Below are positions 7,848 to 29,883 of a DNA stretch of 34,805 nt, in pieces. Made by a program: the position numbers and the translations under genes. The stretch is from Candidatus Adlerbacteria bacterium (lineage in GTDB: Bacteria; Patescibacteriota; Minisyncoccia; Phycocordibacterales; SBAW01). Under the pieces are notes generated by a model. That model saw only the letters and a list, made by a program, of their open reading frames with translations. It had not been told where the DNA came from and made no database searches. Numbering within the stretch: the stretch's first letter is position 1; the number at the start of each line of letters is the position of its first letter. The DNA is taken from NCBI GenBank assembly GCA_043734325.1, contig JAYTFN010000089.1, positions 1-34,805 on the forward strand, read 5' to 3'.

Positions 7848-7977
7848 CAAAAGACATAACAATCCCACCTGCGTGGGATTTTGTGCTTTTGTCCGAGACG
7901 GAGCGATGTTTTGCATTTGCAAAATCGCGAGTCGGGGTCGCGAGCATATTTTGCGACGGCAAAATGTGACTTGTGAC
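7844..7977 (+). repeat. tRNA-Lys-associated structured trailer (partial copy of element family)
   Basis: CGGACAAAAG 7844-7853 pairs with CTTTTGTCCG 7886-7895; core 7896-7977 AGACGGAGC..GCGAGTCGGGGTCGCGA..GTGAC shared with 8342-8427. Confidence 0.75.
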
Positions 7978-8182
7978 GACTAATAAAAACAGCACCTGCG
8001 TAGTAGGGTCACGACCCTTATAGCGGACCTGTCCGGCAGCTTCAACGACTCGAGTTACATAGCACCTTTGGACTTTGTCGAAGGAACTCTTTCGCTTACC
8101 GTAACAAGTGAACACAGTTTTGACAACAAGACCATAGTCTACTACGTGACGGGAAAATAAATTCAGCGTACAATCGGTCTAT

Positions 8183-8264: not shown

Positions 8265-8571
8265 CAAGGAGGAAGCCGGCATTTGCCGGTTTTTTCGTGC
8301 CCACGAAGTACAGTGCCTGCGCACTGTGCGGAGGACTTGAAAGACGGAGCAATGTTTCGTTAGCAAACGAAACTGCGAGTCGGGGTCGCGAAAAAACGCT
8401 TGCGTCGGCAAGTGCTTTATTCGTGACCAAGTCCTCTCGGGGGCACCGAAAGAAAAGTTGGCTTTGTGCCAACTTTTTCTTTTGGTCCAAGGACTTGAAA
8501 GCCGGAAGGAGCGAAGGCGACTGAGGCGGGGTCGCGCAAATTTTCAGCAGAAAATTATGTGTGACCAAGTC
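8265..8571 (+). repeat. Two tandem tRNA-Leu-associated structured units containing inverted and direct copies of the tRNA 3' end
   Basis: 19-bp direct repeat CAAGTCCTCTCGGGGGCAC at 8247-8265 and 8428-8446; inverted T-arm copies GAGGACTTGAA 8331-8341 and AGGACTTGAA 8490-8499; shared core CGGGGTCGCG..GTGACCAAGTC. Confidence 0.85.
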
Positions 8572-27474: not shown

Positions 27475-27627
27475 TTACAAACTGTATTTAGTCAGTAAGT
27501 ATACAAATGCAAAAAAAACAGTGGAGAAAGCGGACCAACAAAAAATGCCGCCGAGCATGTGACTACCATCATACCAATCTTGGTCTTCTTCAGCAGGGCT
27601 GATTATATTAGTATTTTTGTAAGTCAT
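27475..27627 (-). CDS. Putative 50-aa membrane peptide
   Basis: Manual translation MTYKNTNIISPAEEDQDWYDGSHMLGGIFCWSAFSTVFFAFVYLLTKYSL*; GGAGG RBS; upstream TTGACA (27690-27685)-16-TACAGT. Confidence 0.55.
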   Translation of the reverse strand: MTYKNTNIISPAEEDQDWYDGSHMLGGIFCWSAFSTVFFAFVYLLTKYSL

Positions 27628-27747
27628 GGCACCCTCCCTTAACTAAGGCTTCATCCACCATAACTGTATATAATTTTTTTAAATTGTCAAAGCTATACAT
27701 ATCCAAGCCTCAATTCAGGTAAATTTACTATTTCAAGGTTATGACCG

Positions 27748-28134
27748 TTAACACGACGCAATACCTGGTATGAGGCCGGGTATAATTGAGTTTGCAGTAT
27801 TTACAAGAGTTATACCCAAAAGCCATGAGCCAAAAAATAAGAATACTCCAAGCAAAACGTGTACGAGCTTAGTGCGAGCATCAGCAAGCGCTCCGGCATT
27901 TCCCCTTGCATACACAAACAAAAATCCTACATACGCTATTGCGAGTGCAGCTACCGGCGTTCCAATTAAATAGATGCCGCCGATAAACCCTTTTAAAGCG
28001 CACACAAGCGGCTGGTTGTTTAAAGGATCTTCAAATGTAAACGTTTCCGTTTGTGCAAAAGCAATGACAGGCAGCAGAAAAGACACGAGAAGCGCAATTG
28101 AAACTTTTTTATTAAAATAAGCTCTCACCACCAA
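27748..28134 (-). CDS. Orphan TrbC/VirB2-like pilin, paralog of 9697-10119
   Basis: Signal peptide ending IAFA; FEDPL..PVAALAIAYVGFLFVYARGN..ADAR..LGVFLFFGSW. Confidence 0.7.
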   Translation of the reverse strand: MVVRAYFNKKVSIALLVSFLLPVIAFAQTETFTFEDPLNNQPLVCALKGFIGGIYLIGTPVAALAIAYVGFLFVYARGNAGALADARTKLVHVLLGVFLFFGSWLLGITLVNTANSIIPGLIPGIASC

Positions 28135-28157
28135 ATACTACCATTGTATGTGATCTA

Positions 28158-28504
28158 CGACTCAAATTTGCTGTCGCAAAATTTGGTCGCCGAACTCGCC
28201 TTCCGCATCGGAACGTCCGAAGGGACGTAGGCGGTTTTTGCCTTTGCTTATAGCAAAACAAAAACAACACTGCGGCCGTCACACGTAAACAAAAAAAGCG
28301 GAATTATCCGCTTTTTTGAATCGTGTGACCCTACCGGGAGTCTTTCCTTACAGGAACAGTAGGGGTTTCGTATCTCACTTCGTTTTGGAACAAAACTCGT
28401 TACGATATACTCAACCCTTTCGACTCCCGGCCGTAGGCAAAGTAGTTTGCCTACTTAGGGTCATGAATAGAAAAGGCGCCTTTCGGCGCTCATTTCTGTA
28501 CTCA
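28158..28504 (-). repeat. tRNA-Glu-associated structured trailer, two units
   Basis: 17-bp direct repeat TGACCCTACCGGGAGTC at 28326-28342 and 28505-28521; inverted copies TTCGACTCCCGG 28419-28430 and TAGGGTCATGA 28456-28466 separated by hairpin 28433-28454. Confidence 0.8.
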
Positions 28505-28576
28505 TGACCCTACCGGGAGTCGAACCCGGCTTTAAAGCTTGAAAAGCTTTCGTCCTAACCGATAGACGATAGGGCC
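28505..28576 (-). tRNA. tRNA-Glu (TTC)
   Basis: Reverse complement: acceptor GGCCCTA/TAGGGTC-A; anticodon arm AAAGC-TTTTCAA-GCTTT; T arm CCGGG-TTCGACT-CCCGG. Confidence 0.93.
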
Positions 28577-28675
28577 ATTACGGCAAATATAGCCTAAAGT
28601 GCAAAAAAATGCTATTTTGCAAACTGTTCGACCTATGAAAGGAAGAAGAATGTTAGTTCTTTCCTACTAACATCT

Positions 28676-28762
28676 GGAGAGGTGGCTGAGTGGTCGAAGG
28701 CACCGGTTTCGAAAACCGGCATCCGGGAAACTGGATCGAGGGTTCAAATCCCTCCCTCTCCG
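28676..28762 (+). tRNA. tRNA-Ser (CGA)
   Basis: Acceptor GGAGAGG/CCTCTCC-G; anticodon arm CCGGT-TTCGAAA-ACCGG; long variable arm; T arm GAGGG-TTCAAAT-CCCTC. Confidence 0.95.
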
Positions 28763-28777
28763 CAGAAATAAACTTCC

Positions 28778-28975
28778 GAATCCGAAAGGTGGGGGCGAAA
28801 ACATGAAAAAATACGACTCAAAAAAGGTATGTCGCAAGGCGACATCTGCCGTGAGTTAAGGTTAGATAGAGTGTATATTAGTAATGTTGAGAACGGCAAA
28901 CAAAACCTTACAATTAGCACAATGGAAAAGGTAGCTAAAGTACTTGGGGTTAGCGTATATCAACTTTTGAAATAA
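28778..28975 (+). pseudogene. XRE-family HTH regulator, 5'-damaged copy
   Basis: Intact frame from ATG 28829: MSQGDICRELRLDRVYISNVENGKQNLTISTMEKVAKVLGVSVYQLLK*. Upstream GENMKK segment (ATG 28803) is out of frame relative to IRLKKG, and an in-frame stop lies at 28769-28771. Confidence 0.7.
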
Positions 28976-28977
28976 TT

Positions 28978-29883
28978 ATGACTACACAAAACCAAACCAT
29001 TACCAAAATCGCAATATTCCAAAAAAAGGAAGTCCGCAAGATTCTTCACAAAAACGAATGGTGGTTCTCTGTAATTGATGTGATTGAGGTTTTAACAGAT
29101 ACTGCACGTTCTCGAAAATATTGGAGCGACCTCAAGAGAAAACTTATAAAAGAGGGTTATTCCGAAGTGTCCGAAAAAATCGGACAGTTGAAAATGACCT
29201 CTCCAGACGGAAAAAAGCGAGAAACTGACTGCGCTAATACCGAGACAATTTTCCGTATTATCCAAGCCATTCCTTCGCCAAAAGCAGAACCATTCAAACG
29301 CTGGTTGGCACGAGTTGGTTTTGAACGAATTGAGGAGATAGAAAATCCAGAACTTGCCACAAAACGCACGCGTGCATTATACAAAGCCAAAGGATATTCT
29401 GATACGTGGATTGAGAAAAGAATGCAAGAAATAGAAATAGAAACAGATACAATACCAACAGAACTCAAAAAAATTCTCGTAGATAAAATTAATCAATCGT
29501 TATGGTGGCATGTAACACCTAGCGATCCAGATGCATATAAAAAACGGGGAAAATTTTTAGCCTCTACATACAGTCAGGCAGCTTTTTATGGGAAGCCCAA
29601 TATAAAACCGGAAAGAATCAAAATATCGCACCCACTATGTAGTGACTCAGAGAAAGAAATTCTTAAAGTTCTATTTCCAGAGACACACCAGAGAATGCTT
29701 CTTTTTATTACAAGTGCAAATGAGTCGGATTACTATGAGCGAAGAATTAATTTAGATGAAAAGATGCACGAGCAAGCAAAGAAGTTAGGATATGATTCAA
29801 TTGTTCTTCTCGGCTCAACGGCAATAAATGAACTTGTGAAGAACCGTAAACCTCGTTCAATCGAATTAAATCTATGTGTATGA
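28978..29883 (+). CDS. BRO-N domain protein fused to a putative ADP-ribosyltransferase-like C-terminal domain
   Basis: N-half WWFSVIDVI..YWSDLKRKL..DGKKRETD..RIIQAIPSPKAEPFKRWLA (BRO family); C-half WWHVT..GKFLAST..AAFYG..ISHPL..GYDSIVL..IELN. Confidence 0.75.
   Translation: MTTQNQTITKIAIFQKKEVRKILHKNEWWFSVIDVIEVLTDTARSRKYWSDLKRKLIKEGYSEVSEKIGQLKMTSPDGKKRETDCANTETIFRIIQAIPSPKAEPFKRWLARVGFERIEEIENPELATKRTRALYKAKGYSDTWIEKRMQEIEIETDTIPTELKKILVDKINQSLWWHVTPSDPDAYKKRGKFLASTYSQAAFYGKPNIKPERIKISHPLCSDSEKEILKVLFPETHQRMLLFITSANESDYYERRINLDEKMHEQAKKLGYDSIVLLGSTAINELVKNRKPRSIELNLCV

Follow-up and report, generated by a model that had tools for sequence, protein, structure and literature searches.

What kind of sequence carries both an antisense and a sense copy of the 3' end of the tRNA gene that it follows, and how could it have come to lie there? 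The question is raised by the tRNA-Glu(UUC) gene in a contig of a Candidatus Adlerbacteria bacterium, which was analysed over its 34,805 nucleotides (hereafter the window). An initial annotation had described a mirror architecture behind this gene on the minus strand, consisting of the tRNA end, a hairpin, inverted copies of the acceptor and T-arm parts separated by a further hairpin, a structured core, and a direct copy of the tRNA end. The whole of this arrangement, with its coordinates, holds (Table 1). The region contains two tandem members of a lineage-specific superfamily of non-coding units, about 100-180 bp long, which lie at gene 3' ends, mostly those of tRNAs. A member is laid out as the gene end (X), a trailer or terminator, an inverted copy (X') usually split by a hairpin, a core, and a second X. 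Since antisense and sense copies of the gene end flank folded elements, the units are either a new mobile repeat or a new RNA device at gene 3' ends.

Anatomy of the tRNA-Glu locus

The 17-bp direct copy reported for the tRNA end is an exact repeat with the reported period, and shuffled controls yield no comparable matches. The distal copy GACTCCCGGTAGGGTCA has two matches in the window at up to two mismatches and any match in 0/100 shuffles; the T-arm part of X', CCGGGAGTCGAA, is likewise found twice (at its own site and, on the opposite strand, in the tRNA), against a shuffle mean of 0.06 and two matches in only 1/100 shuffles. The 162 nt between the X repeats are without an ORF of at least 80 aa. 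Seven terminator-like sites were observed in the tRNA-Glu region where 1.4 were expected, and the first hairpin behind the gene (28489..28476) has the G+C-rich stem and following U run (CTTTTCTATT) of an intrinsic terminator. The hairpin GTAGGCAAA/TTTGCCTAC inside X' belongs to a recurrent class with loops AACUGCUU or CCUGCG and has homologues in other units.

The core of unit 1 comprises a helix Pa, an internal loop GAGUA/CGAA, a helix Pc with an inner hairpin, and a junction CUACUG, and it ends with a hairpin Pb whose UGUAA loop is closed by a C-G pair (CUGUAAG). Pairing of the distal X with X' is predicted to be able to close this core as a further helix, P1.

In unit 2, the terminator AAAAAAGCGGA/TCCGCTTTTTT is flanked on both sides by GTCACACG/CGTGTGAC. 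The 3' part of the unit had been said to resemble the core behind tRNA-Lys. The model built for that core family (R2) does match at 28209..28153, at a weak 18.8 bits (E 0.021); given this low score relative to the Lys and Leu units, the resemblance is real and unit 2 is decayed. An ortholog of unit 2 in genome G002 is about 88-90% identical as judged by eye. The next gene downstream encodes a TrbC/VirB2 pilin-like product, with a Pfam TrbC score of 24.5 bits, below the 27.9-bit cut-off.

Table 1. Features of the tRNA-Glu locus and of the other units in the window
Feature	Position	Strand	Basis
tRNA-Glu(UUC), the gene whose 3' end is copied	28577..28504	minus	ARAGORN; Rfam tRNA 28576..28505, 59.3 bits
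Proximal X, tRNA-Glu G57 to A73 (T-loop, T-stem 3' strand, acceptor 3' strand, discriminator)	28505..28521	minus	sequence
Trailer and terminator-like hairpin GAGCGCC-GAAA-GGCGCC, then UUUUCU	28467..28503	minus	terminator site 28489..28476, which also scores on the plus strand
X', acceptor part TCATGACCCT, complement of the tRNA-Glu end AGGGTCA and three trailer bases TGA	28466..28457	minus	sequence; paired with the tRNA end in the predicted MFE fold
Hairpin inserted in X', perfect 9 bp, GTAGGCAAA-CTAC-TTTGCCTAC	28454..28433	minus	sequence
X', T-arm part CCGGGAGTCGAA, reverse complement of tRNA-Glu T54 to G65	28430..28419	minus	motif count against shuffles
Type B core	28343..28418	minus	model R1 match 28327-28432, 96.6 bits; covariation; fold
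Distal X GACTCCCGGTAGGGTCA, exact 17-nt direct copy of the tRNA-Glu 3' end	28342..28326	minus	identical to 28521..28505, period 179
Unit 2, 5' module: trailer CACG, terminator AAAAAAGCGGA-TAA-TTCCGCTTTTTT, then CGTGTGAC complementary to GTCACACG	28278..28325	minus	sequence
Unit 2 core, decayed or variant type A, ending in GAGTCGTAGATCAC, a decayed tRNA 3'-end copy	28150..28277	minus	R2 match
TrbC/VirB2 pilin-like ORF, next downstream gene, start 15 nt past unit 2 (context)	27748..28134	minus	ORF; Pfam TrbC
Short-form type A unit behind tRNA-Lys(CUU); arm CTTTTGTCCG complements the tRNA end and trailer	7849..7978	plus	R2 83.2 bits
Two tandem type A units behind tRNA-Leu(UAG)	8266..8566	plus	R2 99.6 and 38.6 bits

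Conserved RNA-like cores and their distribution

The cores form two or more conserved families with covariation; additional core types, C and D, were also encountered. Unit 1 at tRNA-Glu is of type B, the Lys and Leu units are of type A, and the second tRNA-Glu unit is weakly type A. In a test of covariation and strand bias that included independent alignments from other genomes (A3 and A5, where fitting to the models favours pairing), 87.6% of type B cells were paired as compared with 67.7% after shuffling, and changes on both sides were found in 18/23 pairs; for type A the values were 90.7%, 76.9%, and 20/29 pairs. Both types also have conserved unpaired bases. G.U outnumbers A.C by 45 to 5 in type A and by 30 to 2 in the type B core helices, a pattern typical of RNA on the tRNA strand. 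One type A G.U pair, close to the core-X junction, is kept in 34/35 sequences. Both types thus show the compensatory changes and the sense-strand G.U excess of a structured non-coding RNA. On the sense strand of the gene the cores fold into RNA-like three-way junctions, which makes it very probable that they act at the RNA level, within read-through transcripts.

Among 151 genomes of the order, all very small, type B was matched in 98 (model R1) and type A in 120 (R2), with at least about 800 matches for each model. One or the other type was present in 127 genomes and neither in 24, and outside the order, a sample of 150 genomes from elsewhere in the phylum gave a type B match in one. The highest counts reach at least 27-28 units in one genome. 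Units lie without exception downstream of their gene and on its strand: of 37 type B matches, 30 have a tRNA on the same strand no more than 400 nt upstream, and 21 repeat 12 nt or more of the end of that tRNA exactly. Any function of the units would touch a large share of the tRNA genes of the lineage.

The two conserved RNA-like folds are missing from Rfam. When the Rfam 15 covariance models were run on the window, gathering scores were reached by tRNAs only, and at E values up to 10 there was neither a credible overlap with the units nor a ribozyme match, HDV-like ribozymes included. The layout of the units matches no known mobile element, terminator or riboswitch; article listings and abstract openings in the full-text literature contain no description of such units, and the family is abundant and apparently undescribed. 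A likeness of type B to hammerhead, k-turn or hairpin-ribozyme structures was considered by eye and dropped, since type B has the topology of a two-strand internal loop and lacks an Rfam match.

Recurrence at other genes and tracking by X'

An exact direct copy of 16-20 nt lies 141-190 nt downstream of 6 of the 29 tRNAs of the source genome (the first tRNA-Leu(UAG) unit, for example, has the 19-nt copy CAAGTCCTCTCGGGGGCAC at 8429-8447), and at a seventh tRNA the inverted copy is present and the contig ends beyond it. The corresponding count in the loci of relatives is 8/38. The initial annotation had noted at two loci the same order and length of parts with tRNA-specific sequence; the order holds, and the length does so only roughly, with X-to-X periods varying from 118 to 205 nt. 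Repeat boundaries were compared in 43 units. The left edge precedes the tRNA end by 17-24 nt in 37 of them. The right edge coincides with the tRNA end to within 3 nt in 31, reaches 4-41 nt into the trailer in 10, and is off by a whole period in 2. Direct repeats range across units from about 5 to 70 nt, and their frequent extension into the trailer points to duplication at the DNA level.

A hairpin resembling an intrinsic terminator usually separates the gene from the unit, so that the core is found behind it, 40-90 nt from the tRNA end. Trailer and anti-trailer are mutually complementary inside units. The core lies beside T54 in long forms and beside acceptor bases in short forms; no fixed tRNA site is addressed. 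Arrays combine different cores in tandem, perfect tandem duplicates occur too, and many copies are decayed. A decayed tandem tRNA duplicate was considered as an origin and rejected, both because the T-loop is present as its reverse complement in the inverted part and in view of the case of topoisomerase I (topA).

The gene X–trailer–X'–core–X layout also occurs outside tRNA genes. In three families, the 3' end of topA has an X' of 8-12 nt and a type A core, followed by a 60-70-nt duplicate of the coding end. Across these three families X' covaries with the coding sequence, a pattern that selection on an RNA helix and correction would explain equally well. Free-standing topA units retain P1 through compensatory changes, and a seamless empty topA site was found in a congener. 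For the topA unit of genome G117, a recent intragenomic jump was considered and is not supported, given that no near-identical donor copy is present in that genome. The mechanism proposed in the initial annotation, a general one by which the 3' end of each tRNA is copied or evolves together with its copies, is supported, in that neither of the two refuting conditions named there (comparable matches in shuffled controls, and inverted copies that fail to follow the cognate tRNA) held. The phenomenon extends to a protein gene.

It had also been predicted that inverted copies should follow their cognate tRNA in other genomes, and they do. The 3' end of the orthologous tRNA-Glu of genome G012 has three substitutions, two of which recur in mirrored form in the inverted copy. 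Across 26 type B units, the distal copy differs from the tRNA at 11 helix positions; at 7 of these X' pairs with the tRNA base, at 3 with both, and at 1 with the copy alone. X' tracks the gene-proximal copy, and the distal copy drifts. In three comparisons, made by eye on weak similarities, the proximal and not the distal trailer resembled the empty-site trailer of a relative.

The distribution of units among close relatives is patchy. Within one genus, tRNA-Asp has a unit and tRNA-Met has none in G000, the reverse is true of G009, and tRNA-Glu of G007 is empty. When units are compared by their cores, those of one genome group together (17 label changes; none of 200 shuffles had fewer than 19), and those of one tRNA identity do not (23 label changes; shuffle mean, 23.9). 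One genome has near-identical cores with different arms at five loci, namely tRNAs for Pro, Trp and Tyr, an uncalled tRNA-like gene, and a site behind another unit. Stable positions exist as well: the type A unit behind tRNA-Lys(CUU) occupies the same place in G000, G002, G009, and another family, and the first 77 nt past tRNA-Glu are 95% identical between G000 and G002, against 72-74% in flanking coding DNA. No excised or empty variant was found in the four metagenome DNA runs that contain the window; the contigs bridging 27600-29000 are identical to it, with no joint skipping a unit. No RNA run is listed for this region. The four DNA runs come from one study, possibly the source of the window, and contigs drop rare variants, so the lack of unit-skipping joints says little.

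Origin of the units and comparison with known systems

The explanation that we favour, at slightly less than an even chance, is the insertion and duplication of a structured repeat by enzyme-less DNA-level templating. The inserted entity would be X' plus core, and the second X would be a DNA-level duplication from the pairing point of X' (the T-loop in tRNAs) to the insertion point. The source would be host replication or recombination, for example a copy-choice template switch with re-entry at the conserved T-loop, or else recombination between X repeats, and no element-encoded transposase would take part. Hairpin (quasipalindrome) correction or selection may keep X' complementary to the proximal, functional end, and the X repeats, by recombining with one another, could let units be lost precisely, be amplified in tandem, or swap cores with other loci of the same genome. 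As selfish elements, which we infer them to be, the units would be repeats that spread without a transposase and never break their essential targets. Several observations speak against templated insertion. Non-coding conservation is stronger than expected for junk, the tRNA-Lys(CUU) unit is fixed in place across the three genomes and the additional family, the G117 topA donor is absent, and the four runs lack an excised or empty variant; template switching alone also does not explain the conserved hairpin inside X', and the evidence on which X copy came first consists of the weak trailer similarities judged by eye.

The main rival, possible and in our judgment less probable than not by a clear measure, is a host cis-acting RNA module co-transcribed by read-through. 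X' would pair either with the 3' end of its own gene, as a longer terminator hairpin, or with the distal copy, as P1, in an attenuator-like toggle; alternatively, the module would act in the processing, stability or termination of tRNA and mRNA 3' ends, with the core a putative protein binder or ribozyme. Such a role agrees with the covariation and conserved unpaired bases of both cores, the invariant G.U pair and strong sense-strand bias, the invariable position downstream on the strand of the gene, the presence in 127 of 151 genomes of very small size, and a non-coding part better conserved than the neighbouring genes. It agrees, too, with the complementarity of X' to the functional gene end across lineages and with the preservation of P1 by compensatory changes in free-standing topA units. 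Both pairings are predicted by folding: tRNA plus unit has an MFE of -118.7 kcal/mol (z -9.3), and the unit alone closes P1. A host module is harder to reconcile with the terminator-like hairpin that usually stands between gene and unit, with the 24 genomes matched by neither type and the locus-by-locus differences between close relatives, or with the many decayed copies. Moreover, P1 needs the distal copy, which drifts while X' does not, the cores do not follow tRNA identity, and their position relative to the tRNA end varies. Functional units would be a new device acting on the 3' ends of RNAs, in organisms about whose RNA processing little is known.

An integrated tiny single-stranded DNA element, circular or in hairpin form and bearing the gene 3' end as its attachment site, is unlikely. 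P1 (X':X) beside the core would present a folded site, as in CTX-phi/IMEX or integron attC, and the single Xer-like recombinase of the host, or Campbell-type homologous recombination via X, would insert the element at the T-loop; its X would become the gene end and the old X would be shifted downstream. The order X, spacer, X', core, X is the exact product of integration at the core-X junction, and of the two X copies it is the proximal one, the presumed hairpin partner of X', that X' matches. Trailer and anti-trailer complementarity, tandem arrays with mixed cores, the seamless empty site, the tyrosine recombinase in 19/19 genomes, and the folding preference for one strand also speak for it. 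Yet genomes with zero copies carry the same recombinase, the proximal trailer resembles that of the empty site in the three by-eye comparisons, and the conserved G.U, a G.T in DNA, better suits RNA. Every target would need its own X and X', yet near-identical cores occur at different tRNAs, and no free or phage-borne copy was found: none of 18 IMG/VR loci with two exact motifs passed R1 or R2, a narrow test given that only these two motifs were scanned. Still less probable, and in our view very unlikely, is RNA-level 3'-end replacement or an intron-like element of the T-loop, in which the cores would be small ribozymes with cleaving or joining activity at the junction of core and X. The transcript would fold as a tRNA with the distal copy as its 3' half, and the proximal X:X' hairpin with the core would be a T-loop insert. 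Trans-splicing ribozymes have the order of antisense guide, core, and sense 3' part that is general here, topA included; in the MFE fold, the acceptor and T-stem 5' strands of the tRNA pair with the distal copy, and core conservation is RNA-like, with the invariant G.U near the core-X junction. Against this stand the lack of an Rfam ribozyme match at E up to 10, the absence of RtcB from all ten high-copy genomes examined, the decay of the distal copy in many units, and an intact upstream gene that needs no splicing. Catalytic cores would represent additional ribozyme classes with programmable arms. A protein-independent system programmed by base pairing is improbable. In it, a small RNA with a type A or B core, an antisense guide to the 3' end of a host gene or RNA, and a spare sense copy of that end would replace or re-join gene 3' ends, as a T-loop intron-like or trans-splicing mini-ribozyme, or would direct its own insertion at the guided site; such RNAs, mobile or serving repair and equipped with guides, would form a new class with hundreds of copies.

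A direct repeat of the tRNA 3' end from the T-loop is the classical att signature, and ordinary att scars of a prophage or integrative element would account for it, as might chance or an assembly artefact. This reading is extremely unlikely and is contradicted by the data. The insert is the 162-nt stretch between the repeats, which lacks an ORF of at least 80 aa, distant second copies of tRNA ends amount genome-wide to two chance 14-mers inside coding DNA, and each core recurs at least about 800 times in 151 independent assemblies, with shuffles free of matches.

Enzymes were compared between 10 high-copy and 9 zero-copy genomes. Phage_integrase has 1-3 matches per genome in 19/19, a single match in 6/10 high-copy and 5/9 zero-copy genomes, and most of the 19, zero-copy ones included, have one tyrosine (Xer-like) recombinase. 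The reverse transcriptase domain RVT_1, the mark of a retroelement, shows no link with the units (4/10 vs 3/9), and the IS110 DEDD recombinase expected of bridge-RNA systems exceeds the Pfam cut-off in 0/19. An initial contrast for Y1_Tnp, the mark of REPIN/RAYT and PATE systems (8/10 vs 3/9), disappeared over 151 genomes (79/127 with units vs 12/24 without, P = 0.27), and only 1 of 18 Y1-like genes adjoins a unit, which shows no linkage.

Integrative elements are reported to target tRNA genes and to restore their 3' ends, with att duplications that start in the T-loop or the anticodon loop. The units share with them the T-loop-to-3'-end direct repeat (17 nt, exact, on both sides of the tRNA-Glu insert), the intact gene, tandem accretion at one tRNA, and, at topA, an analogous duplication of a protein-gene 3' end. 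They differ in being gene-less and 100-180 bp long, in their antisense copy and structured core, and in the variable right edge of the repeat; neither an integrase or cargo between the repeats nor an extra, dedicated integrase in carriers was found. In IS200/IS605 single-strand transposition, a guide beside a subterminal hairpin is said to pair with the flanking target. Like these elements and PATEs, the units have a guide by conserved hairpins that complements the immediate upstream flank, strand specificity, seamless empty sites, and small non-autonomous forms; unlike them, they have Watson-Crick guides of 8-20 nt rather than 4 nt, long direct repeats, and Y1 genes neither linked nor correlated. 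CTX-phi attP(+)/IMEX and integron attC are folded single-stranded attachment sites used by host recombinases. The resemblance to CTX-phi attP(+) and attC lies in two inverted target-like copies with a short spacer, a duplex that mimics the target, and arrays at the target; the contrast lies in many gene-end targets instead of one conserved site, no phage or cassette cargo, and a preference for RNA-type pairing. Theta (HDV-like) ribozymes lie just behind phage tRNAs, and engineered trans-splicing group I ribozymes consist of guide, core, and 3' exon. A structured RNA downstream of tRNAs and the order antisense guide, core, sense 3' part recall both; unlike theta ribozymes, the units showed no similarity to HDV-like or other Rfam ribozymes, and their core is set 40-90 nt off, behind a terminator.

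In REP/REPIN, ERIC, Correia and MITE-like repeats the arms belong to the element and there is no long target-derived direct repeat, and REPINs accompany a RAYT (Y1) gene. The units have neither terminal inverted repeats of their own nor a target duplication of fixed length, as a MITE would; their arms are the 3' end of the neighbouring gene and differ at every locus. They also differ from REPINs in the lack of a Y1_Tnp association and in cores that are three-way junctions with a conserved G.U rather than simple palindromes. Like REP/REPIN, ERIC and Correia sequences, they are small, abundant, lineage-specific, and hairpin-forming, lie at gene 3' ends, and are probably transcribed with their neighbours; their copy number likewise varies widely among relatives, and they evolve in concert within genomes.

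Anatomy and recurrence of the units

Downstream of tRNA-Glu(UUC), an antisense copy of the tRNA 3' end (X') is followed by a structured core and by a direct copy of the same end (distal X, the gene's own end being proximal X). X' is usually split by a small hairpin in such units. The coordinates that the initial annotation had assigned here all proved correct against the minus-strand sequence and the tRNA and terminator predictions. At up to two mismatches, the 17-mer of the tRNA-Glu end occurs twice in the window and has no match in any of 100 shuffles, so the repeat stands up to the shuffled control.

The first tRNA-Glu unit and its tRNA, positions in the window
Feature	Position	Strand
tRNA-Glu(UUC)	28577..28504	minus
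Trailer, 12 nt	directly 3' of tRNA-Glu end	minus
Terminator-like hairpin with U run	28489..28476	minus
TCATGACCCT, complement of last seven tRNA-Glu bases and three trailer bases	28466..28457	minus
9-bp hairpin, perfect	28454..28433	minus
CCGGGAGTCGAA, reverse complement of tRNA-Glu T54 to G65	28430..28419	minus
Core, 76 nt (type B)	28418..28343	minus
GACTCCCGGTAGGGTCA, identical to tRNA-Glu G57 to A73	28342..28326	minus

A second unit with a variant core lies downstream of the first. Its terminator is flanked by GTCACACG and CGTGTGAC, its 3' end, GAGTCGTAGATCAC, is a decayed copy of the tRNA end, and it matches the model of type A cores weakly (18.8 bits, E 0.021); the orthologue in a relative (G002) is clearly the same unit. 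A TrbC/VirB2 pilin-like ORF (27748-28134, minus strand; Pfam 24.5 bits, under cut-off) starts 15 nt past the second unit on the same strand, thus the Glu units also form the upstream region of that ORF, an arrangement retained in G002. Within the second unit, the motif CCGCCTA, hairpin, TTCCGAGGCGGAAG (28210-28250) was observed; it also stands directly 5' of tRNA-Leu(UAG) in G002 (L080:2170-2215) and may be a separate mobile module.

In the window's own genome (654 kb, 130 contigs), exact direct copies of the tRNA 3' end, 16-20 nt long and 141-190 nt downstream, were found at 6 of the 29 tRNAs (Leu-UAG, Glu-UUC, Val-UAC, Asp, Val-GAC and Glu-CUC), and a Tyr tRNA has an inverted copy followed by the contig end. 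Direct copies lie downstream of 8/38 tRNAs at loci fetched from relatives. About one third of the 29 tRNA genes encode CCA and none of the six does; in other genomes units also occur at CCA-encoding tRNAs, the copy then often including CCA.

The type B model (R1) matched 98 of the 151 genomes of the order, with at least ~813 matches (E ≤0.001, the best 27 candidates per genome being scored), and 1 of 150 genomes in a wider-phylum sample, 144 of which lie outside the class. The type A model (R2) matched 120/151 genomes of the order (at least ~793 matches). Either type is present in 127 of the 151 and both in 91. A same-strand tRNA stands no more than 400 nt upstream of 30 of the 37 type B hits (30 loci), and 21 of the 37 contain 12 nt or more of that tRNA's end, for many tRNA identities. 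Of the 36 type A hits (29 loci), 21 are within 120 nt of a same-strand tRNA. Neither type matched Rfam 15, and no description of such units was found in the part of the literature reached by full-text searches. Core types C and D (e.g. GGGGGTCGGGGA ... GAGTGAGAT) were seen to fill the same slot between inverted and direct copies, at Ile-UAU of G011 (L007), Arg-CCU of G025 (L021) and contig C129:1119-1325 of the window's genome; since the type A and B counts leave them out, these counts understate the share of tRNAs with units. In two genomes (L091 in G041, L144 in G114), units are found at a tRNA-like gene ending GGGTTCGATTCCCGGCATCTCCA, which has no ARAGORN call and is possibly an unusual tRNA.

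Core folds and the template of X'

At least four core types emerged from alignment of the units. Type B, that of the first Glu unit, is a three-way junction of P1 (the X':distal X helix closing the core, here the inverted T-arm paired with the direct copy), an arm Pa-Pc with internal loop GAGUA/CGAA, and a hairpin Pb whose UGUAA loop is closed by a C-G pair (CUGUAAG). Among 13 hand-picked units, 87.6% of the cells are paired, compared with 67.7% in shuffles and 37-52% for slid partners, and 18 of the 23 pairs have changes on both sides. Type A, that of the window's Lys and Leu units, comprises nested helices P2-P3-P4 and P5-P6, with 90.7% paired cells in 17 units (shuffles, 76.9%), two-sided changes at 20/29 pairs, and one G.U pair invariant in all 17. 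In independent sets found in other genomes with R1 and R2, the ratio of G.U to A.C is 45 to 5 in type A, where the invariant G.U is retained in 34 of 35 sequences, and 30 to 2 in the type B core helices; fitting these alignments to the models favours pairing, not strand bias. The excess of G.U indicates that the fold is read on the gene's sense strand, as RNA would be. The loop motifs CCUGCG, AACUGCUU and a CUGC centre are common to the small hairpins and terminators of the units across tRNAs, core types and genomes (window 28433-28454, 8296-8330, and many loci), and may serve for recognition by a protein or nuclease.

The initial annotation had inferred a mechanism that copies or co-evolves with each tRNA 3' end and had named tracking of the cognate tRNA by the inverted copies as a test; two comparisons show such tracking. 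Among 26 type B units, the distal copy differs from the tRNA at 11 P1 positions, where X' pairs with the tRNA base alone at seven, with both at three and with the copy alone at one; the model used to find the units rewards X':copy pairing, so its bias opposes this result. At the tRNA-Glu orthologue in G012, the module that starts with the trailer and ends with the inverted T-arm shares 89% identity with that of the window and mirrors two of three tRNA substitutions, and is then followed by a type A core, not type B.

Protein gene ends and turnover

In many type A units a long copy is missing. P1 is then, by eye, 4-6 bp (TGTGG/CCACA, TATG/CATA, TCATG/CATGA), and its 5' strand also prolongs the terminator hairpin so that it reaches into the trailer and tRNA end. 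Three type A units from three families (G128, L136; G170, L139; G117, L147:1350-1660) have no upstream tRNA and instead follow the stop codon of a protein gene, DNA topoisomerase I in G117 (Topoisom_bac 299.7 bits, Zn_ribbon_Top1 123.4 bits) and, by sequence likeness only, in G128 and G170. First comes X, the final 60-70 nt of coding sequence ending at the stop, followed by a CCUGCG-loop hairpin, X' (8-12 nt, complementary to the start of X), the core, and a second X; in G117 this second copy is identical over 59 nt, and in G128 and G170 it has diverged. Among the three genomes, X' changes along with the coding sequence, and its match to the proximal copy is closer than that to the distal copy. 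In a congener of G117, this gene end is present with no unit behind it. Thus, the architecture concerns gene 3' ends in general. If RNAs were joined there, the duplicate could code for an alternative C-terminus.

Unit presence varies locus by locus between congeners: tRNA-Asp is filled and tRNA-Met empty in the window's genome, the opposite holds in G009, and tRNA-Glu is empty in G007. Cores are mixed in arrays (B then A at Glu in the window; B, D and a third type at Arg in G025; B, B, A, A, A at Lys in G122), and perfect tandem duplicates of the entire 138-182-bp period exist. In a tree built from 85 different type B cores, with arms removed and identical units dropped, genome labels require 17 changes, compared with at least 19 (mean 26.5) in 200 shuffles, whereas tRNA amino-acid labels require 23 (mean 23.9), with 72 of the 200 shuffles equally good. 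G041 has near-identical cores at five loci (behind Pro, Trp and Tyr tRNAs, a tRNA-like gene without ARAGORN call, and another unit), with wholly different arms and with small hairpins diverged through compensating changes. The tree and these copies indicate that cores move or become homogenised within genomes and arms remain local.

At the pilin-side syntenic locus in G002 (L014, contig C4), a 37-nt remnant (GGCCCTA, hairpin, then TGGTTCA) stands in place of tRNA-Glu, ~120 nt upstream of the match. The module of trailer, terminator, inverted acceptor and hairpin is there 95% identical to the window's, and the type B unit is absent between two ACGGCCG repeats.

Origin of the units

By itself, the unit has a predicted fold (-59.3 kcal/mol, z -6.0) in which a closed P1 encloses the type B junction. 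For tRNA plus unit, the best predicted fold is a swapped form (-118.7 kcal/mol, z -9.3), in which the distal copy would pair with the 5' strands of the tRNA acceptor and T-stem and proximal X with X' around the terminator, the long X:X' hairpin and core being placed like a T-loop insert. Both alternative pairings put forward in the initial annotation therefore appear available in these predictions. The first 77 nt past tRNA-Glu are 95% identical between the window's genome and G002, compared with 72-74% for syntenic coding DNA, and the Lys unit is retained at the same position in several genomes, which counts against simple junk. Because of this conservation, a host cis-acting RNA module with alternative pairings is still a strong rival, if a somewhat unlikely one.

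The left edge of the repeat lies 17-24 nt before the tRNA end, i.e., in the T-loop, in 37 of 43 type B units. In 31 units the right edge is no more than 3 nt from the tRNA end, in 10 it is 4-41 nt inside the trailer (some reaching the start of X'), and in two, from tandem arrays, the repeat spans the whole period; post-transcriptional CCA is not regular in the copies. These edges suggest that the repeat is a DNA duplication that starts where X' pairs and stops at the insertion point, not a copy of mature tRNA. The best fit, which we hold tentatively, is an inserted X' and core with the duplicated target end alongside, made and reshuffled by host replication or recombination. The inserted entity would be X' plus core, the flanks being a duplication of the target's end. 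Host processes would make and reshuffle units by template switching, with re-entry at the conserved T-loop, and by recombination between X repeats, and hairpin correction or selection would keep X' matched to the constrained gene end. Quasipalindrome (hairpin) correction is a known process.

A folded single-stranded circle integrating through X is doubtful, though less so than RNA-level 3'-end replacement or a T-loop-intron-like ribozyme, which seems very improbable. Between 10 high-copy and 9 zero-copy genomes, no link to units was found for RVT_1 (4/10 and 3/9), Phage_integrase (10/10 and 9/9, mostly one copy in both) or RtcB (0/10 and 1/9), and IS110 DEDD exceeded the cut-off in none of either group. 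In IMG/VR, scans for two motifs returned 18 loci, of which neither R1 nor R2 confirmed any. Ordinary att scars or chance can be set aside for practical purposes, given the unmatched shuffles and an own-genome search in which distant tRNA-end copies, the mark of large integrated elements, were not found. Y1_Tnp was rejected as a partner: the initial 8/10 against 3/9 became 79 of 127 genomes with units against 12 of 24 without (p 0.27) over 151 genomes, and a unit is present at only 1 of 18 Y1-like loci. In the window's genome, a type B unit (89.8 bits; C40:4404-4912, L170) has a Y1_Tnp-like ORF immediately downstream; on its upstream side is a tRNA-like 3' end that terminates in GCGGAGCCA, without ARAGORN call, to which the unit's direct copy, GAGTCCTACCGCCGGAGCA, is a poor match.
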